The position numbers and the translations under genes are program-made. The notes under the pieces were generated by a model that saw only the letters and a list, made by a program, of their open reading frames with translations, was not told the DNA's origin and made no database searches. From NCBI GenBank assembly GCA_965204735.1, contig OZ242008.1, positions 2,784,001 through 2,848,000 on the forward strand: 64,000 nt of DNA, in the 5' to 3' direction. This document shows positions 29,613 through 46,208 of the stretch, in pieces. Within the stretch, counting starts at the first letter, position 1; the number at the start of each line of letters is the position of its first letter. Source of the stretch: Longimicrobiales bacterium. Lineage in GTDB: Bacteria > Gemmatimonadota > Gemmatimonadetes > Longimicrobiales > Gaopeijiaceae.

Positions 29613-32405
29613 TCAAGGAGCCCCCAGAATCCCGTGAATGTAGCCCGGTCCGGTGGAGACGGCGTGCCGCCAGCGGCCGAAGCCGCCGTGGGCGTTCACG
29701 GCCTCGCACCACTCGTCCATGTACCGGCGCTTCACGGGGTCGGGCTCGCGGACGCGGCCCTTCACCTCCAGGACGAGCGTCTCGCCGGAGGTCAGGCGGG
29801 CCAGGAAGTCGGGCCGGTACTTCCGAACCACGCCGCGGTGGACGTAGGAGACCTCGAAGCCCAGGTGGTCGTTCTTGACCCAGGCGCGGACCATGGGGCT
29901 CTGGTCCAGGGCGTAGGCGTCGGACGCCTCCCAGGCGCTGTCGTAGACGCAGTAGTTGACGTGGCTGCGGGTGGTGGGGCCGCACGGCTTGCCGGTGTAC
30001 CAAGTGGCCATGTCGGCGGTGGAGCCGATCGGGCGGTCGGGGTCGAAGACGGGGGCCAGCGCCTCGGCGTTCTCCTGGCGGATCGACTGCAGGACATGCT
30101 GGACCACGCGCTCCATGCTCAAGGCGATGACGATGCGGCGCTTCCGCCGGTCCTGCGCGAAGATCGGCGGCTCCAGCCGGAGTCTGTCGGAGCGCACGAA
30201 CTCCTCCAGCAGCCGAACCAGCTGCGCCAGCAGGACCGACCGGGCTCCGGTCCACTCGCCGTCGCGCACGGCCTGCTCCAGGAGCCTGGCCGCGACCTCG
30301 AAGACGATCGTCTGCTCCCGCTTGCCCCCCAGCAGCTTCGCCAAGTCGATCGTCTCGACCTTGGTCACGTCGGGCTGGCCGTCCACCACCGGCGCCAGCT
30401 CGGCCACGTTGGCCATTGTGCGGACGTCGAGCCGCAGCGGGTCCACCTCGGCCCACTCCACCGTCAGCCGGGGCCGCCACGACCGGTCGATGCGCACGAC
30501 GTTGGGCCAGGCGATCTCATACTCCTTCGCGCGCTCGGCCAGCGGATGGACGGCGGTCTTGGGCTGGGGCGGGTCGGGGACGGCGTCCTCCTGCTCGTGG
30601 GGCAGGAAGGTGAAGGGCACGCCGAAGACGTTCACGTGCTCGGGGTCGAAGAGCCCGGACTCGGGGTTGACCTCGTAGGCGGTCCGGCGGAGCCCGCGTC
30701 CCACGACCTGCTCGCACAGCAGCTGACTGGCGAAGGCGCGCAGCCCCATGATGTGGGTGACGGTCTTGGCGTCCCAGCCCTCCGACAGCATCCCGACCGA
30801 GATGACGTTCTGAATCTGCTCCCCCGGCTCGCCGGGACGCCCCACGGTGTCCACTTGGCGGCGGAGCAGCTCGGCGCGCTCCTTCGCGTTGCTGGGACCG
30901 GGCTTCGCGCCGCCGGCCGCCCCCGCCCCGTTGCCGCCGGCCGCCGCCGCCTCGGCCTCCGCTTCCGCCTTGGCCAGCACCTTGGAGTCGATGTGGAGCG
31001 TGCGCGCCGGGTCGCACAGCTCCGGGACCGGAATCCTGCCCTTGTCGAAGGCGTGCTTGACGCGGGCGGCGGTCTCGGTGCGGTTGGCCACCGTGATCAT
31101 CGTCGGCGGCGCCGGCATCTCGGCTTCGCGCCACGCCTTGGCGGTCTCCTGCCAGTCGTGCCCCAGCAGGTGGTAGCCGTTCACGACCAGATCGGGCAGC
31201 GGCTCGTGCGCGGCGGCCTTGCGGTTCAGGTCGGCCTTCACCTCCGGGTCGTTGTAGATGTGGTACAGGCGCGACTTGTAGGTGGCGGCGTCGGGCACCG
31301 CGTCGTCCCGCACGACCACTCGGGGCGTCTTGACCAGTCCGGCCTCGATGGCGTCGTTGAGGCCGAAGTCGCTCACGATCCAATCGAAGAGCGCCTCTTC
31401 CGAGCTGCGCCCGCCCGACGGCGCGAAGGGCGTGGCCGAGAAGTCGTAGCAGCGGAGGACGCCCCGCGCCCGGTGAATCCTGTCCAGCCCGCCGACCCAC
31501 TTGGTCGCCTCGTCGATCCGGGCCTTGTCGACGCCCTTCATCCGGGTTGCGCCGTGGGTCCGCCAGGCGTGGTGGGCCTCGTCGTTGACGACCAGCAGCC
31601 CGCGGGCGCCCGACATCTCGCCCAGCACGTCGCGGACGTAGGCCTCGTCGCTCCGGGCGCCCCGCTTGTCCACGCTGCGGCGCTTGGCGACCTGCTCGTC
31701 GCTCTCCCAGTTGAGCGCATGCCAGTTCCGCACCACGACCCGGCCTTGCCGCAGCTTGTCGAGCAGCGCCGACGGGACGATGCGAAAGGCTTCGTAGTAG
31801 TTTTCGGGATGAAACGGCTCCAGCACCGCCAGCCGGCTCTTCACCGTGAGCCCCGGCGCCACCACGAGCACGTTGCGCGCGAACCGCGTGTCCCGCCGCC
31901 GATCGACCCGGTTCAGCACCTGCCACGCGATCAGCATCGCCATCACGAGCGTCTTGCCCGAGCCCGTCGCCATCTTGGCGCACACGCGCTGGAAGTCGCC
32001 GCCGTCGGAGGGCACGTCGATGCCGCCCCTCTCCTCGACCGACGACTCGACCAGCCAGATCAGCGTCTCGATCGCCTCCAGCTGGCAGAAGAAGAACCGG
32101 CGGCTGTCGAATTCCTCGGGGTCGTGCCAGTGCCGGAGCAGGCGGCGGGTGACGGCGGAGACGCCCGGCCAGCCGGCCTCGCGCCACTTGTTGACGCGGG
32201 GGCGGATGCGATTGACGAGCGGGATTTCTACGAAGGTGCCGGGGTCGTCGAAGGCGCGGGAGTCTTCGGAGGCGACCAGGTAGCCGGCGGGGCGACGGCC
32301 TTCCTTGAGGTCGAAGAGGCGGGAGTTGTGGTCGTAGTGCCAGTAGCGGGTGGGTTCGTCGTACGGCGAGTTGACGATGAGGCGGTCGATGGTGGATTGG
32401 GGCAT
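29613..32405 (-). CDS. res: Type III restriction enzyme Res subunit (SF2 helicase + PD-(D/E)XK nuclease)
   Basis: 930 aa; KMATGSGKT (Walker A), NDEAHH, FSATP, MLSEGWD, EQVVGRGLR; C-terminal YRPDFL...VLEVKG. Confidence 0.92.
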   Translation of the reverse strand: MPQSTIDRLIVNSPYDEPTRYWHYDHNSRLFDLKEGRRPAGYLVASEDSRAFDDPGTFVEIPLVNRIRPRVNKWREAGWPGVSAVTRRLLRHWHDPEEFDSRRFFFCQLEAIETLIWLVESSVEERGGIDVPSDGGDFQRVCAKMATGSGKTLVMAMLIAWQVLNRVDRRRDTRFARNVLVVAPGLTVKSRLAVLEPFHPENYYEAFRIVPSALLDKLRQGRVVVRNWHALNWESDEQVAKRRSVDKRGARSDEAYVRDVLGEMSGARGLLVVNDEAHHAWRTHGATRMKGVDKARIDEATKWVGGLDRIHRARGVLRCYDFSATPFAPSGGRSSEEALFDWIVSDFGLNDAIEAGLVKTPRVVVRDDAVPDAATYKSRLYHIYNDPEVKADLNRKAAAHEPLPDLVVNGYHLLGHDWQETAKAWREAEMPAPPTMITVANRTETAARVKHAFDKGRIPVPELCDPARTLHIDSKVLAKAEAEAEAAAAGGNGAGAAGGAKPGPSNAKERAELLRRQVDTVGRPGEPGEQIQNVISVGMLSEGWDAKTVTHIMGLRAFASQLLCEQVVGRGLRRTAYEVNPESGLFDPEHVNVFGVPFTFLPHEQEDAVPDPPQPKTAVHPLAERAKEYEIAWPNVVRIDRSWRPRLTVEWAEVDPLRLDVRTMANVAELAPVVDGQPDVTKVETIDLAKLLGGKREQTIVFEVAARLLEQAVRDGEWTGARSVLLAQLVRLLEEFVRSDRLRLEPPIFAQDRRKRRIVIALSMERVVQHVLQSIRQENAEALAPVFDPDRPIGSTADMATWYTGKPCGPTTRSHVNYCVYDSAWEASDAYALDQSPMVRAWVKNDHLGFEVSYVHRGVVRKYRPDFLARLTSGETLVLEVKGRVREPDPVKRRYMDEWCEAVNAHGGFGRWRHAVSTGPGYIHGILGAP

Positions 32406-32422
32406 GTTGGCTACATCACTAT

Positions 32423-33460
32423 CTATGCCTGGTACGGTTGCCCAGACAGCACGTCGATCAGCGGGCCGTATCGAAATTGGCTACCACGCCATTCGATGAT
32501 GGGTGCCATTGCCATTTCTGCGCCTGCGTTTTCCTTCAAGTACTCTGCTAACACATGTAGGCATGATTCGTCGATTGTTGCTCCAAGGTTGTCGTATAAT
32601 TGCTTTCCCGATGGCGTAAGTGTGTGTGTTGGGAGATCAATTTTCTTGTCATTGTCAGCCAGTATCGCGATCGCAGTATTATCGTGAGCCATGACAAATG
32701 CATGTTTAGCTCCAACCGTGTCTTCGAAACTGAAGCGTTTCCCGACATTGGATCCAGTCATTATGAGACCGTACGAGGCTAGATGAAGGATGGTACCGAA
32801 ACTAGGGAAGCCGCTGATCTTGTCTGTGTATCTGTCACCACGGAGGACGAAGTCGCCAGTTACGAATCGCCCAAAATTCGCAAAATCTCTCGCGTCACGC
32901 TGACTCATGTTTTTGAGAATAGACAATGTGTGCAATGATGTTCGTCCAGGCGTCTCCACTTCTCCAGATAGTATCCTAGCCCAGATCCACTGCAGCTGCT
33001 CGGACGTTACATCCTGGACATCGGCGAAGAACCGAGCCGTCCAGTCGTGGTCTACTTCGTGATCTCTCACTTCCTTTCCGTCAAGCTCTTCCGCAGCCAT
33101 CGATACGACATTGTATATGTTGCTCTGCCTCTTGCGCTCTTGAAACACGAGACGAGACTTGATTTCGTCTGCGATGATCATTTCTTCGACAACAGGTTGA
33201 CGCGCCTTGTCATGAGCTTCGCCAATCTGCTGAATAGCATTCATATGACCTCTTGCTTTGATGGCTATGGAGCCTGCTTCTGACACGGCCCCAATGCGCC
33301 GGGCATCTGCTTCGCCTGTCGCTTCAATGCGTCTTGTTTCTGCTCTCATATTTGCCGTCAACCTATCAACCACAGGCCCCGCGACCGCACCGATACCACT
33401 AGCGGTAACTTCGATCAACTTCTCTACAGCTGGTATGTTGATGTTGATGTCAGCCATCAC
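32423..33460 (-). CDS. DUF2806-like protein, AT-rich, between mod and res
   Basis: 345 aa; RQSNIYNVV...VDHDWTARFFADVQDVTSEQLQWIWARILSGEVETPGRTSLHTLSILKNM resembles DUF2806 (recognised from memory). Visibly lower GC than flanks; start overlaps the mod stop. Confidence 0.75.
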   Translation of the reverse strand: MMADININIPAVEKLIEVTASGIGAVAGPVVDRLTANMRAETRRIEATGEADARRIGAVSEAGSIAIKARGHMNAIQQIGEAHDKARQPVVEEMIIADEIKSRLVFQERKRQSNIYNVVSMAAEELDGKEVRDHEVDHDWTARFFADVQDVTSEQLQWIWARILSGEVETPGRTSLHTLSILKNMSQRDARDFANFGRFVTGDFVLRGDRYTDKISGFPSFGTILHLASYGLIMTGSNVGKRFSFEDTVGAKHAFVMAHDNTAIAILADNDKKIDLPTHTLTPSGKQLYDNLGATIDESCLHVLAEYLKENAGAEMAMAPIIEWRGSQFRYGPLIDVLSGQPYQA

Positions 33461-36018
33461 TCCAGCTCCACGAGCTTCAGGCTCTCGATGCCGCGGTCGT
33501 CCACGATCTTGACGGCAGCGCGGCCATACTTGCCGGCCTTGAACGGTAGGGAGACCGTGCCCCGATAGGCTTCGATCAAGTCCGGGTCGATCTCGGCCTT
33601 GAGGTTCTTTGCCAGGCGATTCCAGTCGTGGCGGGCGTTGTCAGCCGGGAAGAACACTTGGCGGGGGAAGAGGCTTCGTCCGTCGTAGTCCGGGTCGAGC
33701 ATCCAGACGGCGATCTTGTCGTGACCGCCGGACTCCAGCTCGCCGGTCTTGGTGTTGTAGTAGTCGAAACCGCCGACGGTGACCCGGTATCTGCCGGCGT
33801 GCTGGCCGTTGGCGATGGACTCCACCTCGACGTCCGGCTGGCCGATCATCCAGAAGCTCTCGTTGGCGCGTCGCTTCTTCAGCAGGTCGTTGGTGAGCAG
33901 GTCCGCGTTCATGTGGGCCTTGAGGAACTGGACGCCCGGCCAGCTTGTCTGGTCGATGTCCTTGGCCGCCTCCGGGTCGAACTGGAAGGCCGCGAAAACG
34001 ATGATCGTTGGGCGGGGAACCAAGCTCTGGGCTTCGTCTATGGCGAGCTCGACTTGTCGTTGCTCCAACGGTGCGTGGTCCGGCCCGAACGACACGACCG
34101 TCCGCATCACCTTCGTGGCGGTGCCCTCTCGAACGCTGTCGGCGCCCGAGTCGTCCGGTCGCGTTTCCCCTTCAGCGTGGAGGTATCGGGCTCCGGCCAA
34201 CGGCTCCAACCGGGCGAACGAGATGCGCTGGCCGGCCTTGCCTCGAATTCCGGTCCTGAGCAGCTCGTCGCGCCAGTCGCTCTGGCGAATCGTCTCGCCG
34301 GAGCGGGCCACGGACTCGTCGGCTTCCCACGACGCCTTATTCCTCGGCGCTTCTTCTTCAAGCGGCTTCACCATTGGAGCGGGAACGGCCTCGACGGTGA
34401 ACGGTCCGGTAACGCGGACCTTGACGCGGTCGATCTTCGGCTGGTCGTAGAGAGCGATTCGCTTGGCGGGCTCGCCGTAGGCCAGGGTGCGGGCGGAGAC
34501 CGTGTCCACGGTGCGATAGCGGAAGCCGGAGCCCACGCCTTCGTCGGGATAGGCCAGTTCGTAGTAGTCGAAGTGCGCGGTCATCAGCCGTTGGCGGGCC
34601 ACGGCCACGGCAACTCGGGATGTGTCGCATGTTGCCCAGCGACGGCCCCATTGCTCGGCTACGTAAGCGGTGGTACCGGAGCCGCAGGTGGGGTCGACGA
34701 TCAGGTCGCCGGGGTCGGTGGTCATGAGGATGCAACGCCGAATGGCCGCGGCGTCCGTCTGAACGACATATCGCTTATTTTGCGCTCTCATCGGTGCGGA
34801 CCAGACGTTATTGATACGCCGTCCCGGAACTTCGTCTTCGTATTGCTTCCATCTCAACGATTGACCCTCTTGCGCCTCCAGCCGATTGAGTTCGGACAAG
34901 CGATCTAGGCCAGCCTTCGATACTCGCCATTGGCCAGTGCTACTGCAACGGAAGATGCGGCCGTTCCATTCGTAGGGATCAGAGCGACCAGTCGTTGACA
35001 CTCCCTTGGATTCAAGAGGCATTCGAGCAAAAACTCTGGCATCTTGTGGCAAGTACTCGTCGGGGTTGGAAGTTTCTTCGGCCGTCAGTTTCCGGCACTC
35101 GCCGTTTGGCAGCTCAAGCATCGCATGCCAGCTGAAGAGGCCGATCACCTCAGCTCTCGTAAGTGGTTCGTATAGATGTCGGTACTTCACCTGTTTGCGA
35201 TCCCGTGCATACCATAGCAGATAATCGGCAACTTCTGGTATCGTCAAAGCCGAACTGCCTCCCGTTGTCGCATACGAAATAGTGGCGATCCGGTTTTCTG
35301 CACCGAACAACTCATCCAGGAGAACACCCACCCTATGAACGTTCTCCTTGCCGATCTGCACGAAACAACTGCCGCTGTTGTGCAATAGCCCCTTGGCCAA
35401 TGTCAGTCGGTCGCGCAGATACGTCAGGTAGGAGTGAATCCCAAGCTCCCAGGTATCTCGAAACGCCCGAATCATCTCCGGTTCGCGGGTGAGGTCGCGA
35501 TCCATGTCGCGCACGTCGGACTTGCCCACGAACGGCTGGAAGTTGGACCCGTACCGAATCCCGTAGGGCGGGTCCATGTACACCATCTGCACCTTGCCGC
35601 CCAGACCTTCCTTCTCCAGCAGGCTGTTCATGACCAACAGGCTGTCGCCGGCGACGAGGCGATTGGTCCAGTTGTGTCGGTGGCGGTAGAAGTCAATGGC
35701 TTGCCGGATCGGGGGGTTCTCGGCGGGGTCCTCAAACAGGGAGTTCTGCGAGGCCGGGTCGCCGTTGCGCTTGCGGACCGCCTCCACGATGGTGCGCGGG
35801 TCGATCCGCTCGTGGACGTGGAGCGAGACGGTCGGGACCTCGAACGACGTGTGCTCGGCCTTGCCCGCCCACGAGAGTTCGGGGTCGATGTGGGGGTCGT
35901 GGGCGTAGGTCTTCCTGCCGGCGTCCTTGTCCGTGGCGGGCGTCACCAGGCCGACCGGCGGGTTGTTGGCGCGCTCCTTGTCGCGGTGCGCGTAGCTCTC
36001 AATGTCTTTCTTCGCCAT
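33457..36018 (-). CDS. mod: Type III RM Mod subunit (beta-class N6-adenine DNA methyltransferase)
   Basis: YMDPPYG (motif IV) precedes DPTCGSGTT (motif I); upstream of res. Start taken at MAKKDIESY (ATG 36018) rather than 36099. Confidence 0.92.
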   Translation of the reverse strand: MAKKDIESYAHRDKERANNPPVGLVTPATDKDAGRKTYAHDPHIDPELSWAGKAEHTSFEVPTVSLHVHERIDPRTIVEAVRKRNGDPASQNSLFEDPAENPPIRQAIDFYRHRHNWTNRLVAGDSLLVMNSLLEKEGLGGKVQMVYMDPPYGIRYGSNFQPFVGKSDVRDMDRDLTREPEMIRAFRDTWELGIHSYLTYLRDRLTLAKGLLHNSGSCFVQIGKENVHRVGVLLDELFGAENRIATISYATTGGSSALTIPEVADYLLWYARDRKQVKYRHLYEPLTRAEVIGLFSWHAMLELPNGECRKLTAEETSNPDEYLPQDARVFARMPLESKGVSTTGRSDPYEWNGRIFRCSSTGQWRVSKAGLDRLSELNRLEAQEGQSLRWKQYEDEVPGRRINNVWSAPMRAQNKRYVVQTDAAAIRRCILMTTDPGDLIVDPTCGSGTTAYVAEQWGRRWATCDTSRVAVAVARQRLMTAHFDYYELAYPDEGVGSGFRYRTVDTVSARTLAYGEPAKRIALYDQPKIDRVKVRVTGPFTVEAVPAPMVKPLEEEAPRNKASWEADESVARSGETIRQSDWRDELLRTGIRGKAGQRISFARLEPLAGARYLHAEGETRPDDSGADSVREGTATKVMRTVVSFGPDHAPLEQRQVELAIDEAQSLVPRPTIIVFAAFQFDPEAAKDIDQTSWPGVQFLKAHMNADLLTNDLLKKRRANESFWMIGQPDVEVESIANGQHAGRYRVTVGGFDYYNTKTGELESGGHDKIAVWMLDPDYDGRSLFPRQVFFPADNARHDWNRLAKNLKAEIDPDLIEAYRGTVSLPFKAGKYGRAAVKIVDDRGIESLKLVELE

Positions 36019-36162
36019 GCTTGCGCTCGCGCCCCAGGGGCGGGCCGTGTGTCCGATGATCGAGGCGTTCAACTTATTGGGATAGTGGGACTCCCGCAAC
36101 CATTCTGGGCGGCTCCGCTGGCCGCAGCGTGGGCTCGACGGCGAGGTGCGCGGCGTCCAGCG

Positions 36163-36278
36163 CTACCCAAGGAACGTCGTCGCCTACCCAAGAAGTGGGC
36201 CAGACTACCCAAGAAACCACCGGCCACTACCCAAGAAGCTAGCCCAGCTACCCAAGAACTTGCCCCACTACCCAAGAA
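36163..36278. repeat. Six 11-bp direct repeats CTACCCAAG(A/G)A with 9-11 nt variable spacers
   Basis: Copies start at 36163, 36184, 36205, 36227, 36248 and 36268 (periods 21, 21, 22, 21, 20). Confidence 0.95.
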
Positions 36279-36320
36279 ATCGCACAGACACCGACCACGA
36301 CCCGGCTACGCTGTACCGTA

Positions 36321-36350
36321 TGTCGGACCCCTTAGCTACCTTGTCCGACA
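36321..36350. promoter_or_regulatory. Palindrome TGTCGGAC-N14-GTCCGACA; TGTCGG-N10-TA on both strands
   Basis: TGTCGGACCCCTTAGCTACCTTGTCCGACA; the + strand gives TGTCGG-N10-TACCTT. Lies between divergent MTase genes. Confidence 0.5.
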
Positions 36351-36434
36351 CTCCCACGGGCCCGCGGCCCCTCCGCCTTCGCGGTCCCGTTTGCGGGCGA
36401 CCCCGCAGGCGGACGAGGAGCGAGTGCCCGGACC

Positions 36435-39221
36435 GTGAGCGATCAGCTCTTCCACGAGGTCCTGGAAGCCACGGGCTACCTGATCGGCGGCCGACCGGCG
36501 CCCGGCGTGACCCTCGGCGAGGAGGCGACCGCCAATGGGCGTTTCCGCAGCTTCAAGCCGAATGGCAAGTGGCGGGGCGAATCGGCGCTCACGGTCTACT
36601 TCAAGCTGGAGCCCGAGCCGCCTTCCGAGGAGCGCATCGCGACGTGGCGTCGGGAGATATGGAACGAAGGACAGTCGCCCCTGCTTTGGGTGATCTCGCA
36701 GAACAAGATCAACCTCTACAACGGCTTTGCCCGGCCGCGGGACGCCGGAGACGCCAAGGCCAGTCGCCTGCGGACCTTCGCCAAGCTCGCCGGGAAACTT
36801 GAAGAACTCGACCTTGCCGGCAGATTCGCGATGGAGACGGGTCGCTTCTGGGAACACGATGCAGCCAAGAGGGTGCATCGACGAACCAGCGTCAGTCGGC
36901 AGTTGTCGTCGGACTTGGCCAGCCTCGAACGGGACCTGCTCCAAGGCGGCATGGTGCGACTTGACGCCCAAGGGCTGATCGGTCGCTCCATCTTTGTCCA
37001 GTACCTCGTCGACAGAGAGATTGCGACCCCCGAGTTCCTGAACGAGCTTTGCGGTAGGAACGCCCTGTCGGACGTGCTGCGCGACGAGCGGAGCGCCAGG
37101 CGGCTCTTCGACTGGCTCCACAACGTCTTCGATGGCGACATGTTTCCTATCAACGGCCGCCCCGACCGCCCTGAGCATCTGCGTCGCGTGGCCGACTTCC
37201 TGGACGCCGTGGACCCTCGCACAGGCCAGAGGACGCTCTTCCCCTATCAGTTCGACATCATTCCGGTCGAGCTCATCAGCTCCATCTTCGAGCAGTTCGT
37301 TCAGGCCGACCCGACCATTCGGGGCAGCGCCGGCGGGACGAACGCGCACTGCACCAGGTTGTCGCTGGTGTCGCTCGTGCTGGACGAAGTCATGGTGGAG
37401 TGCGTCGGCCACGAGACGGTGCTGGACTTGACGTGCGGCTCCGGCGTCTTTCTCGTCAAAGCGTTCCGGCGGCTGGTGACGCTTCGTGCCGGTGGGAAGC
37501 CTCCAAGTGGCCTAATGATAAGGTACGTGTTGCACGAGCAGGTTTTCGGGCTGGACATCAGCGAGGCCGCGATTAGGGTCGCAGCATTCAGCCTCTACTT
37601 GGCCGCCTTGGACCTCGATCCCAACCCGCAACCCCCCCATGCGCTGGCGTTTTGGCCCCTCATCGGCAAGACGCTGTTCGTGGGCGACGTTTGGACGGAC
37701 CAACACAAGTTGGCCGCCGCTAACCGGGGCGGGAAGTTCGACCTGATCGTGGGCAACCCTCTGTGGAGATCCATGCCGCCCTCGCGGGACGATGATGCAT
37801 CCGGCCCTCGAGGCACCAGCCTGAGATTCGTCAATAAGGCCATGAAGTACGGCTCCGACGACACCCGCCTGGGCCTGGTGCTAGGCGTACATCACTTCTT
37901 CGGACGAGCCGAGACGGCGCAGCGCGCCCTGCAGCAGATCATCGAGAAGCTGGCGCCGCTGACGCTGGTCAACCTGTCGAACCTTTCCGCATGGCTCTTC
38001 CCAAAGGCCAACATGCCCGCGATGATTCTCTTTGCCGGACACCGTAGCGATGTACCGCCCGTGATCAAGGCAGTTCAAGCACCTTGGTCGCCGGCCGGAG
38101 CAAAGAGCCACACCTTCGATCTCGCTCCCAGCGACGTCACCACGCTCCCAATCTGGGACTGGAAGCGGGACCCGCGCTTCCTCAAGGGCGCGGTCGTCGG
38201 TACCCACCGGGACCTGACCCTGGTCGACGACCTGTGGAGGGCACACGGCGAGCTGAAGGACGAACTCCAGAAGATTGGCACGAGATTCCACACAGGACTG
38301 ACGTTCCCACGCGACAAGCACATCTTTTGCGCACCTGTGTTGATCATGAGGGAGATGCTTCTGAGGCAGTACATGCCTCGCATGGTTGTAGCCGTTGCCG
38401 AGGAAGACACAGTGTATTCCAACGCCTACTTCGGCGTCGCATTTCCTCCACAGCACGAGGATGTTGCGCATCTTCTCGCTGGCATACTGAGTTCGTCGTT
38501 GGCCACTTGGTTCCTGCTCATGACGGGATCGACCCTGGGACTGGCCAATCGCCGAGTCATGTCCGCCGATGTCGCCCAGGTGCCAGTGCCCGATCTGGCG
38601 GAGGCCGCGTCCTCGGAAGTTGGCCGGTGCATCGTCGACCGGGCTCGAGAGCTGGGCGGACAGGCCGTGACCAAGGACGAGTGGCGGGCCCTCGACGAGG
38701 AGGTGTTCGAACTCTACAAGCTGCGTCCTTCGGAGCGTATTGTGGTGCGGGACGGCATGTTTCGGGCGACATGGCAGTGGGAGGCTGGCCGGGACGCATC
38801 GGTGGCGCAGGCGTCGATCAAGGACGTGGTGTGCTATGCGAAGGCGTTCGGGTCCGCCATCGACGTCTGGCTTCGAGAGAGGAACCGTCATCGAATGCGT
38901 GCGGAGGTGTTCGACCTGCCGCTTCGCGAACCGTTGCGGGTGGTGCGCTTTGTCGTGGAAGACCAGCCTGGACCATCGGTTGTCGAAGTCGTAAGTCCCG
39001 ATGGGAGCCTGAGGCAGCTGCTGGACCGGATCGGTGAACGTTTGGAGTCCTCGTTGACCAACTATCTCGTGGGTCAGCGTGAAGTTCGGGCTTACGAGTC
39101 GGGGGAAGTGGTGGTCGTGAAGCCCGCCGCCCGGAGACACTGGATGGGGGTGTGCGCCCTCGGGGACGCCGACGAAGTAATCTCCGTCAGCCTGCGAGTT
39201 CCGAAAACTCGTGAGCAGTGA
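36435..39221 (+). CDS. Gamma-class N6-adenine DNA methyltransferase-like protein (Type IIG/Type I HsdM-like), catalytic motif degenerate
   Basis: 928 aa; FDIIPVELISSIFEQF, VLDLTCGSGVFL (motif I), GLDISEAAIRVAAFSLYL, FDLIVGNPLW (motif IV is normally NPP[YFW]). Confidence 0.8.
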   Translation: MSDQLFHEVLEATGYLIGGRPAPGVTLGEEATANGRFRSFKPNGKWRGESALTVYFKLEPEPPSEERIATWRREIWNEGQSPLLWVISQNKINLYNGFARPRDAGDAKASRLRTFAKLAGKLEELDLAGRFAMETGRFWEHDAAKRVHRRTSVSRQLSSDLASLERDLLQGGMVRLDAQGLIGRSIFVQYLVDREIATPEFLNELCGRNALSDVLRDERSARRLFDWLHNVFDGDMFPINGRPDRPEHLRRVADFLDAVDPRTGQRTLFPYQFDIIPVELISSIFEQFVQADPTIRGSAGGTNAHCTRLSLVSLVLDEVMVECVGHETVLDLTCGSGVFLVKAFRRLVTLRAGGKPPSGLMIRYVLHEQVFGLDISEAAIRVAAFSLYLAALDLDPNPQPPHALAFWPLIGKTLFVGDVWTDQHKLAAANRGGKFDLIVGNPLWRSMPPSRDDDASGPRGTSLRFVNKAMKYGSDDTRLGLVLGVHHFFGRAETAQRALQQIIEKLAPLTLVNLSNLSAWLFPKANMPAMILFAGHRSDVPPVIKAVQAPWSPAGAKSHTFDLAPSDVTTLPIWDWKRDPRFLKGAVVGTHRDLTLVDDLWRAHGELKDELQKIGTRFHTGLTFPRDKHIFCAPVLIMREMLLRQYMPRMVVAVAEEDTVYSNAYFGVAFPPQHEDVAHLLAGILSSSLATWFLLMTGSTLGLANRRVMSADVAQVPVPDLAEAASSEVGRCIVDRARELGGQAVTKDEWRALDEEVFELYKLRPSERIVVRDGMFRATWQWEAGRDASVAQASIKDVVCYAKAFGSAIDVWLRERNRHRMRAEVFDLPLREPLRVVRFVVEDQPGPSVVEVVSPDGSLRQLLDRIGERLESSLTNYLVGQREVRAYESGEVVVVKPAARRHWMGVCALGDADEVISVSLRVPKTREQ

Positions 39222-39437: not shown

Positions 39438-40742
39438 TCACCCCGTCTCCCACAGCGCCCGCATCGGGACGGCGCGAAGACCCTCCCCGAAGGACACGCC
39501 CAACTCGCCGTCGTACAGCACGACGCCGCCGGCGAAGCGGGAGCCCAGCGCCGCCCGAAGCTTGCGCAGCCCACGGAAGTCGGCGCGGTTCACGGTCGCG
39601 GCGGCCTTCACTTCGACGCCCGCCACCGCACGCCCGCGCTCGACCACGATGTCCACTTCGGCGCCGTCCTTGTCACGGTAGTGGTGGAACGAGTGGGGTT
39701 CGGGATGACCGCTGGCCATTCGCCGAAGTTCCTGGCAGACGAAGGTCTCGAGGAGCTGCCCCAGCAGCGGGCGCTCGGCGGCAAGGTGGGCGGCATCCGT
39801 GCCAAGCAGCGTGCACGCCAGCCCGGTGTCGCCCAGGTGGAGCTTCGGCGTCTTGACGAGCCGCTTGAGCCTGCTTCCGTGCCAGGGCTGAATCCGGTTC
39901 AGCAGGAATACTCGCTCCAGCAACGTCACGTACTCGCCTATCGTCGCCCTGCCGACGCCGAAGGTGGACGCCAGCTTGGTCGCGTTGAAGAGCTGGGCGG
40001 TGGCGGATGCGGCCACGGACAGCAGCTTCGGCAAGGCGTCCAGGTGGCGGATGCGGGCCAGGTCCCGCACGTCTCGCGCCACGATGGTCTCCACGTAGCT
40101 CCGGTACCATTCGGTGCGCCAGCGGCCCTTGGGGCGCACGAGAGCGGCCGGATACCCGCCGGCGACGATCCGCTCCGCAAGCTCGGCGCCCAGCCTCTCG
40201 GCGACCTGGAAGTCGGGTCCGCCGCCGAAGATGGCGTCGAGGAACCCCACGTTGGGCTGGGTCGGCCCGCTCCGGACGGCTCGGCCTGGAGACGCCGACG
40301 GCCCCGGCTCCGGTCGCCCCAGCTCCGCCTGCGACAGCGGGTGCAGCCGAAGGACATGCATCCGTCCTGCCAGCGAGTCCGAGAGCCTCGGGACCAGCAG
40401 GACGTTGGACGAGCCCGTGAGGATGAAGCGGCCCGGGGTCCGCCGGCGGTCGATTGCAACCTTCAGCGCCGCGAAAAGCCCGGGCACGCGCTGCACTTCG
40501 TCCAGCACGACCCGCTCCGGCAGGTCGGACAGAAAGCCAGCGGGGTCGGCCTCCGCCGTCAGGCGCGCCACGTCGTCGTCAAAGCTCACGTAGGAGTAGC
40601 CCAAGGGACCGCCGACGGACCGTGCCAGGGTCGTCTTGCCGCACTGGCGGGGGCCGTGGACCAGCACAGCGGGCGAGTAGGCCAGCGCGTCGGCGAGCGG
40701 CTGGGCGGCGTGGCGTGGGTAGAGGTCGGTGTGGGGGGTCAT
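39438..40742 (-). CDS. AAA_14 ATPase with DUF4143 and C-terminal PD-(D/E)XK-like domain
   Basis: GPRQCGKTT, VLDEVQR, FILTGSS, GGYP, KTPKLHLGDTGL, YRDKDGAEVDIVVE...VEVK. Start MTPHTDLYPR at 40742. Confidence 0.9.
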   Translation of the reverse strand: MTPHTDLYPRHAAQPLADALAYSPAVLVHGPRQCGKTTLARSVGGPLGYSYVSFDDDVARLTAEADPAGFLSDLPERVVLDEVQRVPGLFAALKVAIDRRRTPGRFILTGSSNVLLVPRLSDSLAGRMHVLRLHPLSQAELGRPEPGPSASPGRAVRSGPTQPNVGFLDAIFGGGPDFQVAERLGAELAERIVAGGYPAALVRPKGRWRTEWYRSYVETIVARDVRDLARIRHLDALPKLLSVAASATAQLFNATKLASTFGVGRATIGEYVTLLERVFLLNRIQPWHGSRLKRLVKTPKLHLGDTGLACTLLGTDAAHLAAERPLLGQLLETFVCQELRRMASGHPEPHSFHHYRDKDGAEVDIVVERGRAVAGVEVKAAATVNRADFRGLRKLRAALGSRFAGGVVLYDGELGVSFGEGLRAVPMRALWETG

Positions 40743-40795
40743 CGGCTGATCGGCCTGAACCTTGGACACGAGGGGTTCGGGTTGTCCCCGGCGGA

Positions 40796-40910
40796 ACTTC
40801 GGCTGATCGTAAGGTAATACTTCGGCTAATCGTCTGTTTTGGGACGAACTGGTCACGTGGCGGTCGTGTTTGTGGCTTTATGTAGTTGTCTTTGGGAATC
40901 GGCCAATCGT
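40796..40910. promoter_or_regulatory. Operator-like direct repeats upstream of the ATPase
   Basis: ACTTCGGCTGATCGT (40796-40810), ACTTCGGCTAATCGT (40819-40833) and ATCGGCCAATCGT (~40898-40910); the core also occurs at 40743-40752. Confidence 0.45.
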
Positions 40911-41029
40911 CAGTCGTATATGCGTCGATTCGTCCTGTTTCCGATCGGCCGGGGGACCCAGCCGCTCGACGGCGACCCGCGGTCCGGGCAGCCGCCGACA
41001 GCGGAGAGAGCTTATTACTATTAGCTGGG

Positions 41030-41821
41030 TTAGCTCGCGAGCCGGGCGATCAACTCCGCGACCGTGTCGCATTCGATGATGGCATCCGCCGCCGCGTCCA
41101 GCTCGTCGCGTCCGTCCAGGCCGCCGATCACGCCCGACAACTGCACGACCGCGTCCGCACCGAACTTCTGGGCCACTTGGCGCTCCAAGACAGTCCTGGA
41201 TCCCTCCCGGTGGCCTTCCCGGTGACCTTCCCGGCGGCCCTCGTCCCGCAGCCTTGCCTTCTCTTCTTCGATCTGCGTGTACATGTCTCTTGCCTCCGTC
41301 AAGTTGGTGATCTTCGACAGCTCCTCTTCCGAACAGCCCCAACTCCGCGCCGCGCCCACCGCCCACAGCACGAACGCCTGCGCGATCCCAGCGTGCTCGG
41401 GACCCGGGTACGCCTCCAACACCTCGTCCAGCACGGCCCGGACCTTCTCCGTGCCACCGTCCCGCTCAAGCTCCCTCAACCAAGTCAGGATGCGCCGCTT
41501 CCGCAAGTTTCGCCTGGGCGGCGCGCGCATGTCAAGCACATGATAGGGCAGCCGGGGCGAGAGGTCGCGCAGTTGGGGCAGCGTGGGCGAGATCAAGTCG
41601 GCGATGTCGAGGCGGGCGTCCCACGGGTGGGGGCCGTTGTGGACCACGCAGGCGACGACGGGCGGCAGCCGGTAGTCGGCGTCGGACGGCTTCTCGCGGA
41701 TCAGGTTCTCGTAGACGTCGGTCACGTAGCGGAGGACGCGGGCGGGCATGGAGGGCGAGTTCGTCGTCCCAGTCGCGTGCGAGTAGGCGGCGTGGCGTGG
41801 GTAGAGGTCGGCGTGGGTCAT
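41030..41821 (-). CDS. Truncated Rpn copy D: ATPase-like 5' leader fused in frame to the Rpn C-terminal two-thirds, no catalytic motif
   Basis: MTHADLYPRHAAY (cf. ATPase MTPHTDLYPRHAAQ), then MPARVLRY...LIARLAS; lacks QADML and LEFQS. Confidence 0.65.
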   Translation of the reverse strand: MTHADLYPRHAAYSHATGTTNSPSMPARVLRYVTDVYENLIREKPSDADYRLPPVVACVVHNGPHPWDARLDIADLISPTLPQLRDLSPRLPYHVLDMRAPPRRNLRKRRILTWLRELERDGGTEKVRAVLDEVLEAYPGPEHAGIAQAFVLWAVGAARSWGCSEEELSKITNLTEARDMYTQIEEEKARLRDEGRREGHREGHREGSRTVLERQVAQKFGADAVVQLSGVIGGLDGRDELDAAADAIIECDTVAELIARLAS

Positions 41822-41897
41822 CGGCTGCTCGACTCGACCCTGGACGCGACCCGCAAGCCCGGGGCCGTCCCTGACAGCGGGAGAGATCTTGGCTGGG

Positions 41898-42605
41898 CTA
41901 GCTCGCGAGCCGGGCGATCAACTCCGCGACCGTGTCGCATTCGATGATGGCATCCGCCGCCGCGTCCAGCTCGTCGCGTCCGTCCAGGCCGCCGATCACG
42001 CCCGACAACTGCACGACCGCGTCCGCACCGAACTTCTGGGCCACTAGGCGCTCCAAGACAGTCCTGGATCCCTCCCGGCGGCCCTCCCGGTGACCCTCGT
42101 CCCGCAGCCTTGCCTTCTCTTCTTCGATCTGCGTGTACATGTCTCTTGCCTCCGTCAAGTTGGTGATCTTCGACAGCTCCTCTTCCGAACGGCCCCAACT
42201 CCGCGCCGCGCCCACCGCCCACAGCACGAACGCCTGCGCGATCCCAGCGTGCTCGGGACCCGGGTACGCCTCCAACACCTCGTCCAGCACGGCCCGGACC
42301 TTCTCCGTGCCACCGTCCCGCTCAAGCTCCCTCAACCAAGTCAGGATGCGCCGCTTCCGCAAGTTTCGCCTGGGCGGCGCGCGCATGTCAAGCACATGGT
42401 AAGGCAGCCGGGGCGAGAGGTCGCGCAGCTGGGGCAGCGTGGGCGAGATCAAGTCGGCGATGTCGAGGCGGGCGTCCCACGGGTGGGGGCCGTTGTGGAC
42501 CACGCAGGCGACGACGGGCGGCAGCCGGTAGTCGGCGTCGGACGGCTTCTCGCGGATCAGGTTCTCGTAGACGTCGGTCACGTAGCGGAGGACACGGACG
42601 GGCAT
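41898..42605 (-). pseudogene. Truncated Rpn copy C (235-aa ORF, catalytic E-x-Q deleted)
   Basis: 81-bp deletion between two CATGC microhomologies; one fewer 12-bp REG(H/R) unit than the other copies. Confidence 0.7.
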
Positions 42606-42815
42606 GTCGGCCTGTCGGCGATCGAGCTGGGGGCCGACATGCTCGGGGTTGAGCTTGCGCGCCGACTCCAGGGCGAGTTCGTGGTCCCAGTCGCATGCGA
42701 GTAGGCGGCGTGGCGTGGGTAGAGGTCGGCGTGGGTCATCGGCTGCTCGGCTCGACCCTGGACGCGACCCGCAAGCCCGGGGCCGTCCCCGACAGCGGGA
42801 GAGATCTTGGCTGGG

Positions 42816-43535
42816 CTAGCTCGCGAGCCGGGCGATCAACTCCGCGACCGTGTCGCATTCGATGATGGCATCCGCCGCCGCGTCCAGCTCGTCGCGTCCG
42901 TCCAGGCCGCCGATCACGCCCGACAACTGCACGACCGCGTCCGCACCGAACTTCTGGGCCACTAGGCGCTCCAAGACAGTCCTGGATCCCTCCCGGTGGC
43001 CTTCCCGGTGACCTTCCCGGCGGCCCTCGTCCCGCAGCCTTGCCTTCTCTTCTTCGATCTGCGTGTACATGTCTCTTGCCTCCGTCAAGTTGGTGATCTT
43101 CGACAGCTCCTCTTCCGAACGGCCCCAACTCCGCGCCGCGCCCACCGCCCACAGCACGAACGCCTGCGCGATCCCAGCGTGCTCGGGACCCGGGTACGCC
43201 TCCAACACCTCGTCCAGCACGGCCCGGACCTTCTCCGTGCCACCGTCCCGCTCAAGCTCCCTCAACCAAGTCAGGATGCGCCGCTTCCGCAAGTTTCGCC
43301 TGGGCGGCGCGCGCATGTCAAGCACATGGTAAGGCAGCCGGGGCGAGAGGTCGCGCAGCTGGGGCAGCGTGGGCGAGATCAAGTCGGCGATGTCGAGGCG
43401 GGCGTCCCACGGGTGGGGGCCGTTGTGGACCACGCAGGCGACGACGGGCGGCAGCCGGTAGTCGGCGTCGGACGGCTTCTCGCGGATCAGGTTCTCGTAG
43501 ACGTCGGTCACGTAGCGGAGGACACGGGCGGGCAT
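42816..43535 (-). pseudogene. Truncated Rpn copy B (239-aa ORF, catalytic E-x-Q deleted)
   Basis: Same 81-bp deletion as copy C; the translated ORF matches the C-terminal 239 aa of the intact gene. Confidence 0.7.
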
Positions 43536-43745
43536 GTCGGCCTGTCGGCGATCGAGCTGGGGGCCGACATGCTCGGGGTTGAGCTTGCGCGCCGACTCCA
43601 GGGCGAGTTCGTGGTCCCAGTCGCATGCGAGTAGGCGGCGTGGCGTGGGTAGAGGTCGGCGTGGGTCATCGGCTGCTCGGCTCGACCCTGGACGCGACCC
43701 GCAAGCCCGGGGCCGTCCCCGACAGCGGGAGAGATCTTGGCTGGG

Positions 43746-44000
43746 CTAGCTCGCGAGCCGGGCGATCAACTCCGCGACCGTGTCGCATTCGATGATGGCA
43801 TCCGCCGCCGCGTCCAGCTCGTCGCGTCCGTCCAGGCCGCCGATCACGCCCGACAACTGCACGACCGCGTCCGCACCGAACTTCTGGGCCACTAGGCGCT
43901 CCAAGACAGTCCTGGATCCCTCCCGGTGGCCTTCCCGGTGACCTTCCCGGCGGCCCTCGTCCCGCAGCCTTGCCTTCTCTTCTTCGATCTGCGTGTACAT
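43746..44000 (-). CDS. Putative internally initiated small Rpn C-terminal protein (RpnS-like, 84 aa); also 42816-43070, 41898-42140 and 41030-41284
   Basis: In-frame GGAGG-CAAGAGAC-ATG (MYTQIEEEKARLRDEG...) is present in all four copies. Confidence 0.6.
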   Translation of the reverse strand: MYTQIEEEKARLRDEGRREGHREGHREGSRTVLERLVAQKFGADAVVQLSGVIGGLDGRDELDAAADAIIECDTVAELIARLAS

Positions 44001-44753
44001 GTCTCTTGCCTCCGTCAAGTTGGTGATCTTCGACAGCTCCTCTTCCGAACGGCCCCAACTCCGCGCCGCGCCCACCGCCCACAGCACGAACGCCTGCGCG
44101 ATCCCAGCGTGCTCGGGACCCGGGTACGCCTCCAACACCTCGTCCAGCACGGCCCGGACCTTCTCCGTGCCACCGTCCCGCTCAAGCTCCCTCAACCAAG
44201 TCAGGATGCGCCGCTTCCGCAAGTTTCGCCTGGGCGGCGCGCGCATGTCAAGCACATGGTAAGGCAGCCGGGGCGAGAGGTCGCGCAGCTGGGGCAGCGT
44301 GGGCGAGATCAAGTCGGCGATGTCGAGGCGGGCGTCCCACGGGTGGGGGCCGTTGTGGACCACGCAGGCGACGACGGGCGGCAGCCGGTAGTCGGCGTCG
44401 GACGGCTTCTCGCGGATCAGGTTCTCGTAGACGTCGGTCACGTAGCGGAGGACACGGGCGGGCATGGAGCGGTCGACCCGGGACTGGAACTCGAGGAGCA
44501 GGACCAAGAATCCGGGCCGGTGTCGGAAGTCGACGCGCCAGAGCATGTCGGCCTGTCGGCGATCGAGCTGGGGGCCGACGTGCTCGGGGTTGAGCTTGCG
44601 CGCCGACTCCAGGGCGAGTTCGTCGTCCCAGTCGCATGCGAGGTAGTCTTCAAAGAGTTCGACGATGGTGGGGGCATGGGAGAAGAAGAACTTGTAGACC
44701 TCGTCGTGCTTGCGACGGGGGAGGCAGAGCAGGTCAACGTGGGAGTCGGGCAA
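43746..44753 (-). CDS. rpn: Rpn family recombination-promoting nuclease (YhgA/Transposase_31-like, PD-(D/E)XK fold), full length
   Basis: KHDEVYKFFFSH, RRQADMLWRV, LLLEFQSRVDRSMPARVLRY, LPPVVACVVHNGPHPW, REGHREG repeats. AGGAGG lies 7 nt before TTG 44753. Confidence 0.9.
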   Translation of the reverse strand: MPDSHVDLLCLPRRKHDEVYKFFFSHAPTIVELFEDYLACDWDDELALESARKLNPEHVGPQLDRRQADMLWRVDFRHRPGFLVLLLEFQSRVDRSMPARVLRYVTDVYENLIREKPSDADYRLPPVVACVVHNGPHPWDARLDIADLISPTLPQLRDLSPRLPYHVLDMRAPPRRNLRKRRILTWLRELERDGGTEKVRAVLDEVLEAYPGPEHAGIAQAFVLWAVGAARSWGRSEEELSKITNLTEARDMYTQIEEEKARLRDEGRREGHREGHREGSRTVLERLVAQKFGADAVVQLSGVIGGLDGRDELDAAADAIIECDTVAELIARLAS

Positions 44754-44906
44754 CGGGAGGCCTCCTGTAGGGCGCGGTGGGGTTGCGGAGGCCCTTGGGG
44801 GGCGCTCCGAGCCCGGGGGAATGGCCGGGCCGGAAGAAGTATGCATCCGGAGAATGGGCGTTTGGATAGCTGGATCGGCCTTTCTTCGCGAACCGATAAG
44901 CCATAT

Positions 44907-44928
44907 CATTGAGTGATTTTACTCAATG
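44907..44928. promoter_or_regulatory. Inverted repeat CATTGAGT-N6-ACTCAATG, putative operator
   Basis: Perfect 8-bp arms in an AT-rich patch between the divergent rpn and ATPase genes, ~40 bp before ATG 44967. Confidence 0.55.
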
Positions 44929-44966
44929 GACTTCCCTTGCAACCGAATCTCCACTACCTTCCTGCC

Positions 44967-46208
44967 ATGAACACCTTCGAGAGACGCCACGTCGCGGAAG
45001 TGCTCGACCTGCTGGACATGGGCGAGTCGGCCCCGATCGTGGCCGTCGTCGGCCCCCGGCAGACCGGCAAGACCACGATCGTGCGCCACGCCCTGCGAAC
45101 CCTGCGACGAGGGCGCATCTCCGGCTGGCACATCGCGGTCGACGACCCCGACGCCGACGAACCGGCCCCATGGCCCAGCGGTCGGGGAAGGCGCGACGCG
45201 GAGTGGCTGGTCAGCGTCTGGCGGGCCGCCCGAGAGGAGGCGCGATTGAACGAGCGGGGGTTCGTCCTGGCGCTCGACGAAGTGCAGCACGTGAAGGACT
45301 GGTCGCGAGTGGTGAAGGGACTGTGGGACCGGGACCGGGAGGAGGGCCGTCGGCTGCGCGTGATCGTGCTGGGCTCCGCTCCGTGGGACATGCTCACTGG
45401 AATCGGCGAGAGCCTGGTGGGCCGCTTCATGCCGGTGCACGTCCGGCAGTGGTCGCTGCGGGAGATGGCCGCCTTCGACTACTCCATGGACGACTACCTG
45501 TACTTCGGCGGCTACCCGCGCGCGGCTCGATGGAGGCGGAACTGGGTCGACTGGTGCCGGTACATCGTGGAGTCGATCGTCAAGCCGACGATCGGCAAGG
45601 ACATCCTCTCGCTCACGAGAGTCGACAAGCCTGCCTTGCTGCAACAGCTGATGGAGCTGATTCCCCGCTACTCGGGTCAGATTCTTTCCTACAACAAGAT
45701 GCTCGGCCCGCTGCAGGACGCCGGCAACACGACGACTCTGGCCCACTACCTGGAGCTGCTGGGAAACGCCGGACTGGCAGCGGGGCTGTCCAAGTACCCG
45801 CGCGCAGGCGGACGAGGATCAAGCCCCAAGCTGAACGTCCTCGACCCGGCGATCATGACGGCGATGCTGGGGTACGCTCCCGACGAGGCCAAGGCCGACA
45901 AGACGCTCTGGGGCAGAGTCGTGGAGAGCGCCGTCGGGGCTCATCTTCACAACACGCTTCCGCCAGCGGCGACGCTGCACTACTGGCGGCACGGCAACCG
46001 GGAAGTGGACTTCGTGCTGGCGCGAGGTCCCAGCGTGCTCGGACTCGAAGTGAAGAGCGGTCGGACGCATGGGACATCGAAAGGCCTCCAGGCATTCAAG
46101 GAACGTTTCCCGAAGTCCCGGACGCTGCTTGTCGGAGGCGGCGGGGTGCCCCTCGACGAATTCCTGTGGGAGCCAGCGTCCTACTGGCTGGAAGAGGGAT
46201 GGGTGTGA
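44967..46208 (+). CDS. Second AAA_14/DUF4143 ATPase
   Basis: GPRQTGKTT, ALDEVQH, IVLGSA, FGGYP, SSPKLNVLDPAI, YWRHGNREVDFVL...LEVKSG. Start taken at MNTFERRH. Confidence 0.9.
   Translation: MNTFERRHVAEVLDLLDMGESAPIVAVVGPRQTGKTTIVRHALRTLRRGRISGWHIAVDDPDADEPAPWPSGRGRRDAEWLVSVWRAAREEARLNERGFVLALDEVQHVKDWSRVVKGLWDRDREEGRRLRVIVLGSAPWDMLTGIGESLVGRFMPVHVRQWSLREMAAFDYSMDDYLYFGGYPRAARWRRNWVDWCRYIVESIVKPTIGKDILSLTRVDKPALLQQLMELIPRYSGQILSYNKMLGPLQDAGNTTTLAHYLELLGNAGLAAGLSKYPRAGGRGSSPKLNVLDPAIMTAMLGYAPDEAKADKTLWGRVVESAVGAHLHNTLPPAATLHYWRHGNREVDFVLARGPSVLGLEVKSGRTHGTSKGLQAFKERFPKSRTLLVGGGGVPLDEFLWEPASYWLEEGWV

Follow-up and report, generated by a model that had tools for sequence, protein, structure and literature searches.

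Four head-to-tail rpn units lie on the minus strand of the 64,000-nucleotide stretch of Longimicrobiales bacterium DNA analyzed here (the window; contig OZ242008.1). The first, unit A, is an intact gene, and units B, C and D behind it lack its N-terminal part. Zhong et al., 2023 (PMC10400941), in the part of that paper available to us, to which all statements about it refer, report that the small protein RpnS, made from an internal start, neutralizes the full-length toxin RpnL. On balance, and with limited confidence, we read the locus as an Rpn gene-within-gene toxin-antitoxin system with extra RpnS sources (two matched to the toxin and one mismatched), which were made and reshaped by recombination and are kept by weak selection. 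The host genome (G000) is one contig of 4.14 Mb with a guanine-plus-cytosine (GC) content of 69%, and the host of the array was found in sponge metagenomes.

Architecture of the rpn array

A preliminary description of this DNA had proposed one intact Rpn nuclease followed by three disarmed tandem copies that keep an internal antitoxin start. The bodies of the units are near-identical far beyond chance, and the family assignment, the loss of the catalytic core from B–D, the retained internal start and the variable number of units all held up. The units end at stops 43746 (A), 42816 (B), 41898 (C) and 41030 (D), with spacings of 930, 918 and 868, and their parts are as follows.

43746..44753, minus strand: unit A, intact rpn (RpnL, 335 amino acids, TTG start at 44753; PF04754)
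43746..44000, minus strand: RpnS-like internal open reading frame (ORF) of A, 84 amino acids, three four-residue repeats from residue 16, preceded by GGAGG-N8-ATG
44467..44547, minus strand: 81-bp segment of A missing from B and C (codons 70/71–97, including E88-F-Q90), bounded by CATGC
44468..44610, minus strand: 143-bp segment of A missing from D (codons 48–96, including D69 and E88-F-Q90), bounded by CT
43627..43745, minus strand: spacer before B, with an ATPase-derived ATG at 43669 and a junction to rpn codon 38 at CTCGC
42816..43631, minus strand: unit B, rpn codons 38–335 minus 81 bp, with an intact 84-residue RpnS ORF at 42816-43070
42697..42815, minus strand: spacer before C, the same as before B, with the borrowed ATG at 42739
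41898..42701, minus strand: unit C, built as B, with an RpnS ORF at 41898-42140 of 80 residues and two four-residue repeats
41779..41897, minus strand: spacer before D, in which the borrowed ATG (41821) is in frame with rpn
41030..41821, minus strand: unit D, a 263-residue fusion ORF (ATPase start plus rpn codons 97–335), with an intact 84-residue RpnS ORF at 41030-41284

Over codons 97–335 (720 positions), B does not differ from A, C differs at three positions and by a 12-bp gap, and D differs at seven; unit D carries the substitutions L287Q and R235C. The 12 bp lost by C lie within the four-residue repeats, which number three in A, B and D and two in C. In each copy, upstream rpn sequence of at least 465 bases remains, and unit D still has the locus's original 3' end. 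An older annotation as an insertion sequence or transposase was dropped, since no inverted pair bounds any unit among 25 of 40 pairs listed and the junctions are microhomology joins. Because 930 and 918 are both divisible by three, units A, B and C lie in the same frame; a TAG read-through product fusing them is without evidence, and we took the shared frame as chance.

Unit A is a predicted nuclease and its active site is lost from B, C and D

Unit A scored 72.7 bits against PF04754 (cut-off 21). The TIGR01784 subfamily model gave an E value of 5e-8, but only 33 bits against a cut-off of 52.1. The protein is 23% identical to RpnA, and its residues D17, D69, E88, Q90 and R100 align with RpnA D11, D63, E82, Q84 and R94, positions at which mutants lose activity partly or wholly according to the available part of the RpnA study (PMC5350276). 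Four of these five residues are invariant among 43 homologues, and E88 is nearly so. The TTG start has a Shine-Dalgarno (SD) sequence of −10.3 kcal/mol. The structure model (mean predicted local distance difference test score, pLDDT, 83.5) has an α/β N-terminal part and a helical end, and VIA-align matched the N-terminal part to restriction-type nucleases with middling Z scores of 5.5–7.0. Foldseek returned no match at E ≤ 0.001, and none of the PADLOC models matches unit A. The PF04754 match and the aligned active-site residues identify A as a PD-(D/E)XK Rpn/YhgA-like nuclease gene and a predicted toxin, and as the only unit in which the putative active site is kept: D17, E88 and Q90 are absent from B, C and D, and D additionally lacks D69.

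The truncated copies probably derive from a single duplication

Each of B, C and D is preceded by a 122-bp spacer that derives, in shortened and diverged form, from the intergenic region downstream of D and the opening codons of the ATPase gene beyond it. The spacer before B is identical to this source at 110 of 121 aligned nucleotides (11 differ), with several deletions besides. Spacer and rpn are joined at the CTCGC microhomology, and all three copies enter rpn at codon 38, which accounts for the absence of the N-terminal HDEVYK that had been noted. The arrangement records a single duplication at short homology, running from rpn codon 38 to the end of the gene and on to about codon 22 of the downstream ATPase gene.

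The duplicate subsequently lost spacer DNA and, probably twice independently, DNA across E88-F-Q90. The deletions themselves are as first described: B and C lack exactly 81 bp between CATGC copies (A 44467-44547), and the longer deletion of D, which also takes QAD, is 143 bp (A 44468-44610). That they disarmed the copies did not survive analysis: from the outset the duplicate lacked both D17 and the rpn start codon, in addition to being out of frame, and was therefore dead before either deletion. B/C and D share the join and differ in their deletions, and the right end of D is like that of A and unlike that of B; two independent deletions are thus the simplest account. The 143-bp deletion put the borrowed ATPase start of D in frame with rpn, giving the 263-residue ORF; B and C have a 53-codon out-of-frame ORF instead. 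Both deletions end at codon 96–97, a few bases from M97 (44465-44468). There are 182 five-base microhomology pairs, of which 60 span EFQ and only five end in codons 95–99.

The unit was then re-duplicated and stayed nearly identical to A. The spacer has diverged from its source far more than the bodies, which are 99–100% alike (p 4e-10 for B, 2e-7 for D), so either the duplication is old and the bodies have been homogenized, or the downstream region was replaced later.

The internal RpnS start is retained in all four units

The preliminary description had GGAGG-N8-ATG ahead of a C-terminal ORF of about 84 residues in every unit. The motif is indeed present in all four, and the length is right for A, B and D; the ORF of C has 80 residues. 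The SD of this internal start is −9.5 kcal/mol throughout, and it is the sole strong start within each of B–D. The MPARV start in B and C has −2.5 kcal/mol (the peptide given before as MPARVLR reads MPVRVLR in C), and the borrowed ATPase start −4.7 kcal/mol (−4.0 in its native place). We also surveyed 63 full-length genes from three genomes of the genus (G000, G002 and G003; none of the G001 genes passed the filter). A start codon near the position of A's M252 was found in 62 of the 63, and its SD was −6 kcal/mol or stronger in 58 of these 62 (median −11.3) vs 34% of 1,506 other internal starts, a comparison that favors the test set because the best of several nearby starts was taken; Glu-Glu codons also mimic an SD.

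The repeats begin at residue 16 of the small ORF, within the 8–20 range given by Zhong et al., 2023. Repeat number ranges widely in the paralogues, in which tracts reach about 14 units. With the DUF4351 profile (PF14261), the small ORF of A gave no match and that of C an E value of 0.024; two of ten small ORFs tested passed, both from paralogues. The small protein was modeled as all-helical (pLDDT 73), and VIA-align returned generic helical bundles at middling Z. The structure of the RpnAS dimer has been solved (PDB 7TH0); it was found neither by the profile nor among the structure matches listed for the small protein. A model of unit A in complex with the 84-residue protein scored 0.68 vs 0.00 for the best of three controls. 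It thereby passes a mark that applies roughly here and that 116 of 157 solved complexes pass, as do 2 of 215 mismatched pairs. The runs agreed in at least 97% of contacts, and the partner had a pLDDT of 84. The predicted interface is the repeat helix (residues 12–29), with identical residues paired in register, which lends support to a putative binding of RpnS to the full-length protein through this helix. The pass concerns a like-with-like helix pair, however, and may reflect general dimerization.

We picture the locus as follows. The copies would be translated mainly from the internal SD-ATG, on mRNA supplied by read-through from A or by an internal promoter in the retained 465 bp; in E. coli rpn genes there are internal start sites. 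A scan of 40600-45100 for sigma-70 promoters and terminators gave no sites (0.3 and 1.9 expected), which is uninformative because this DNA is 68% GC. RpnS from B and D would bind the C-terminal helix of RpnL in register, holding the nuclease inactive until phage infection, whereas the product of C would be out of register and probably have no effect on A. Weak selection would preserve RpnS at the locus, and unequal recombination would let the unit number drift. Of the ratio of one toxin to four antitoxins proposed at first, the extra RpnS sources remain; the ratio is at best 1:3 matched, C being mismatched with two vs three repeats.

A copy at the same locus in a sister species keeps RpnS

PF04754 matched 27, 11, 27 and 40 times in the four genomes of the genus, and a search of 27 other relatives, several of them with incomplete genomes, gave no match. 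The sister species G002 has an array of its own at the syntenic locus (L016), where flanking genes are 85–97% identical and a full rpn is followed by a copy from codon 191. This copy has its own, different junction, is frameshifted before the RpnS start and has one repeat more. It shows 15 changes in 181 positions before the RpnS start vs 5 in 255, and no frameshift, inside RpnS (p 0.002). Of a third unit, only codons 56–77 and 173–184 remain. Among sites with two states at the two loci, 35 group by species, one by position and 19 are private, so that the copies follow their own full gene. The downstream ATPase gene and the type IIG gene of the window are 96–97% identical in G002, and rpn there only about 88%.

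Ten full-length paralogues are interrupted by a frameshift or a stop, and in every one the lesion precedes RpnS (p 0.037, taking RpnS as 28% of the gene; p 0.052 for nine, with two likely duplicates merged). Among 13 truncated copies that lie downstream of an rpn gene, seven have an intact RpnS (B, C, D, L016, L063, L064 and G000:3167027), a count made by hand across genomes that are kin, so that the cases are not independent. L018 was classed as not intact, L052 as an edge and L019 was counted once. Two displaced C-terminal remnants, one short L076 fragment and one upstream fragment were left out, as were G000:227888, G000:2638219, L057:13096 and L068:13522, which are full genes or parts of one. 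Truncated copies other than B–D start at codons 101, 109, 171, 191 and 219. L047, L089 and G000:C1:774416-774871 were kept apart as a likely separate family of short PF04754-like proteins that stop where the nuclease part ends; they are seemingly conserved between genomes and are perhaps a tail-less Rpn subfamily without RpnS. In L033 (G002:C1:2530801-2531784), rpn lies in a 1,098-codon open frame that continues past the usual end.

The junctions recur in independent metagenomes

The stretch or part of it is present in 18 of 21 listed sequencing runs; all runs that carry a habitat label come from sponge or marine metagenomes, and none is RNA. We compared four runs from four studies (X1, X3, X4 and X7, with X4 and X7 dating from one year) with positions 43620-46600. 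The D junction was present in all four, and the B/C junction with the 81-nucleotide skip in two (X1 and X7). Without X1, which is possibly the source of the assembly, these counts are 3/3 and 1/3. The junctions thus recur in runs of three other studies, which answers the concern that the array might be an assembly artefact. The flank shows no differences in X1 (over 1,749 nucleotides) or X7 (over 1,582), and differs at 73 places in X3 and 70 in X4 (about 4%). Single-contig depths for flank and body were 210 and 777–807 (X1), 2 and 8.4–8.6 (X7), 23 and 65 (X3), and 6.3 and 12–14 (X4), which hint at four, four, three and two units, respectively, although contigs show presence only and their depth is no copy number. 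This agrees with the earlier suggestion that unit number varies, with hints of two to four per strain. A 12-bp gap in the repeats was also seen in X3 and X4. Because Logan contigs drop rare variants, alleles cannot be assigned to copies from them, and an argument for within-strain homogenization from the variants of X3, X4 and X7 was dropped for this reason. A scan of Joint Genome Institute metagenomes gave 129 pattern matches, none of them confirmed.

Weighing the alternatives

Several observations weigh against a selected antitoxin function for B–D. RpnS is broken or missing in 6 of the 13 copies (L018, L019, the third L016 unit, and G000:3165960, 3166601 and 3172411), which makes neutral decay a serious rival and leaves the tuning of a defense threshold no more than a proposal. 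Of the six intact copies comparable with their upstream gene, four (C, L016, L063 and L064) differ from it by about one repeat and would not neutralize by the E. coli rule; Figure 4D of Zhong et al., 2023 shows neutralization blocked when repeat numbers differ by one, and one extra four-residue repeat is reported there to abolish it. That rule is itself extrapolated, given the mere 23% identity to RpnA. Any duplication that starts or stops within the gene gives a C-terminal copy on its own, B–D are too similar to A (0–7 of 720) to reveal selection, and the leanings of the start survey and the like-with-like complex noted above count on the same side. We give a lesser but substantial probability to the view that the copies are neutral debris of a recombination-prone island, which makes and erodes tandem duplicates, with RpnS surviving in B–D only through youth or fresh homogenization. 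The six losses, the near-disappearance of the third G002 unit, the seemingly free variation in unit number and the placement of the deletions on microhomologies, which abound, all speak for it. It fits less well with the sparing of RpnS in L016 while the upstream part decays, with the lesions of broken genes preceding RpnS in ten of ten cases, with a D junction common to strains about 4% apart in the flank, and with a copy at the same locus in two species.

A cassette reservoir seems improbable to us: here the copies would mainly store C-terminal variants, and recombination over the roughly 470 shared bases or inside the 12-bp repeats would give RpnL a new repeat number or module together with the matching RpnS, so that switching is never self-toxic. 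C is one repeat off, 12-bp gaps occur in X3 and X4, copies track the full gene within species (35 vs 1 sites), and module-swapped rpn genes exist at G000:3167982-3172178; but slippage can alter repeat number without a donor, homogenization erases stored variety (B and D offer almost none), and a switch at this locus was not seen, in contigs that drop variants. The dominant-negative subunits of about 240 residues proposed in the preliminary description fare worse, and we consider it very unlikely that B–D make nuclease-dead proteins of about 240–260 residues that poison RpnL dimers. Open frames of 239 (B), 235 (C) and 263 (D) residues are present, both deletions end near M97, the borrowed start of D matches the ATPase's own in strength and D is the most widespread unit. 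The start in B and C, however, is weak at −2.5 kcal/mol against −9.5 for RpnS, three strands of the core sheet are missing (model residues 34–42, 58–64 and 70–78), the G002 counterpart is frameshifted in that part, and other copies begin anywhere from codon 101 to 219. Misassembly of a single gene we regard as nearly negligible. B equals A over 720 nucleotides and the array stretch is not spanned by any listed contig, but each copy has distinct junctions and private variants, the junctions recur in three other studies and an array occupies the same position in the sister genome. The toxin-antitoxin reading with extra RpnS sources is thus the one we retain.

A module swap at the repeats in a second array

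A second rpn array of about 10 kb (G000:C1:3161955-3172600) mixes two subfamilies and contains full, decayed and three chimeric genes. The chimeras are tandem genes (G000:3167982-3172178) whose nuclease part is 23–24% identical to that of A and whose post-repeat part is 84% identical. They share 94% DNA identity with a neighboring A-type gene over the last 214 bp, starting inside the repeats; upstream of the repeats they are 70–72% like another subfamily, and a quick N-domain tree agrees. Behind two of the three is a remnant of a different C-terminal end. These pairwise identities and BLAST results, with the tree run in quick mode only, indicate that a C-terminal module was swapped at the four-residue repeats within an rpn array. 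Module swapping located at the repeats was not found in the literature searched. We tentatively raise, as a rather doubtful idea, that truncated arrays are a switching device, in which the copies supply additional antitoxin and also act as donors for recombination, with crossovers at the 12-bp repeats moving C-terminal antitoxin/dimerization modules between distant nuclease domains.

The array sits in a defense island

Window GC drops from about 0.72 to 0.57–0.69 across about 27–53 kb. The rpn array lies here between two PDC-S01 ATPase genes, and PADLOC identified adjoining type IIG and type III restriction-modification genes. The array thus sits in a defense island and shows the clustering with defense genes expected of RpnL-RpnS systems.

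39438..40742, minus strand: downstream AAA_14/DUF4143 ATPase (PDC-S01; PADLOC E 2e-153), the first codons of which are the source of the spacer start
44913..46208, plus strand: upstream, divergent second AAA_14/DUF4143 ATPase (PDC-S01; PADLOC E 5e-132)
29613..39221, no single strand: rest of the island, with a type III restriction-modification pair (29613-32405 and 33457-36099), a DUF2806 gene and a type IIG-like enzyme (36435-39221)

The low-GC DUF2806 gene (32423-33460, minus strand) is flanked by the methyltransferase and restriction genes of the type III pair. The upstream PDC-S01 gene is followed immediately by an ORF of about 1,400 residues (46202-50422, plus strand) with no Pfam or PADLOC match. 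It has a GxxGxGKT-like motif near its start, is possibly a defense nucleoside triphosphatase, and is partly kept at the G002 locus at 75–85% DNA identity. The rpn array of G003 (L064) likewise has a related ATPase gene behind it. Elsewhere in the genome, 17 tRNA genes are clustered in 2 kb (G000:C1:279122-281107).

Relation to known systems and significance

The locus resembles RpnL-RpnS systems (PF04754/COG5464) as described by Zhong et al., 2023 in its PD-(D/E)XK core equivalents, internal SD and start, helical C-terminal module, variable four-residue repeats 8–20 residues after the Met, defense-island location and tandem arrays, which arise in their account by direct duplication. It differs in its low identity to RpnA, in a small protein of 80–84 residues with a longer helical end, in being known from sequence alone, and in its host, a Gemmatimonadota sponge associate with 11–40 PF04754 matches per genome in its genus.

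In E. coli, rpnC, rpnE, rpnF and rpnP1 are each followed by a second rpnS copy that stems from the gene upstream of it and can be lost (Zhong et al., 2023); a commentary by Koonin suggested that such copies add regulatory flexibility (PMC10400984). These rpnSs genes (rpnESs = ypaA, rpnCSs, rpnFSs and rpnP1Ss) likewise arose repeatedly and are gained and lost among strains. The small ORFs of B–D are closest to the RpnS of the upstream A (99–100% identical), and in B and D, unlike C, the repeat number equals that of the cognate RpnL. In contrast to the rpnSs genes, there are three copies here, each with at least 465 upstream rpn bases and a borrowed neighbor-gene start, one is repeat-mismatched, and homogenization with the full gene is visible. 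The array of Parabacteroides sp. Marseille (Zhong et al., 2023, Figure S1B) is similar in its head-to-tail direct repeats without target-site duplications, according to its legend, which is silent on truncation. By analogy, our locus would work like the published rpnSs arrangement, of which it appears to be an enlarged variant rather than a system of a new kind.

Polymorphic toxins (CDI, Rhs, Maf) offer a further comparison: their orphan C-terminal cassettes are silent homologous 3' parts behind a full gene, the end of which they could replace. Rpn, however, is intracellular and its variable end is an antitoxin/dimerization module, not a delivered toxin domain; moreover, the copies here are 99–100% identical, only C differing at the locus, and form no library of unrelated ends. 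Judging from the sequences, what appears to be new is a sister species with its own truncated copy at the same locus and RpnS spared, homogenization of copies with the full gene, and a C-terminal module swapped at the repeats in another array. We found no later work on truncated rpn arrays in the literature searched, although Figure S1B or Dataset S1 of Zhong et al., 2023 may hold such arrays, and nothing specific to Rpn in sponge symbionts.

The available part of Zhong et al., 2023 left open what makes repeat number change, by what route downstream rpnS genes and duplicated rpn genes arise, and what purpose they serve. The present locus records such steps in its sequence, as a duplication join, two deletions, a re-duplication and homogenization. 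It also offers a natural test set: a single toxin can be set against small proteins that match it (B and D) and one that is a repeat short (C), and natural chimeras are present elsewhere in the genome. The Rpn toxin-antitoxin model would thereby extend to a Gemmatimonadota genus with an expanded family in four of four genomes; and if truncated arrays do act as switching devices, a sponge symbiont with 20–35 intact Rpn toxins could rewire the control of its toxins by their antitoxins.

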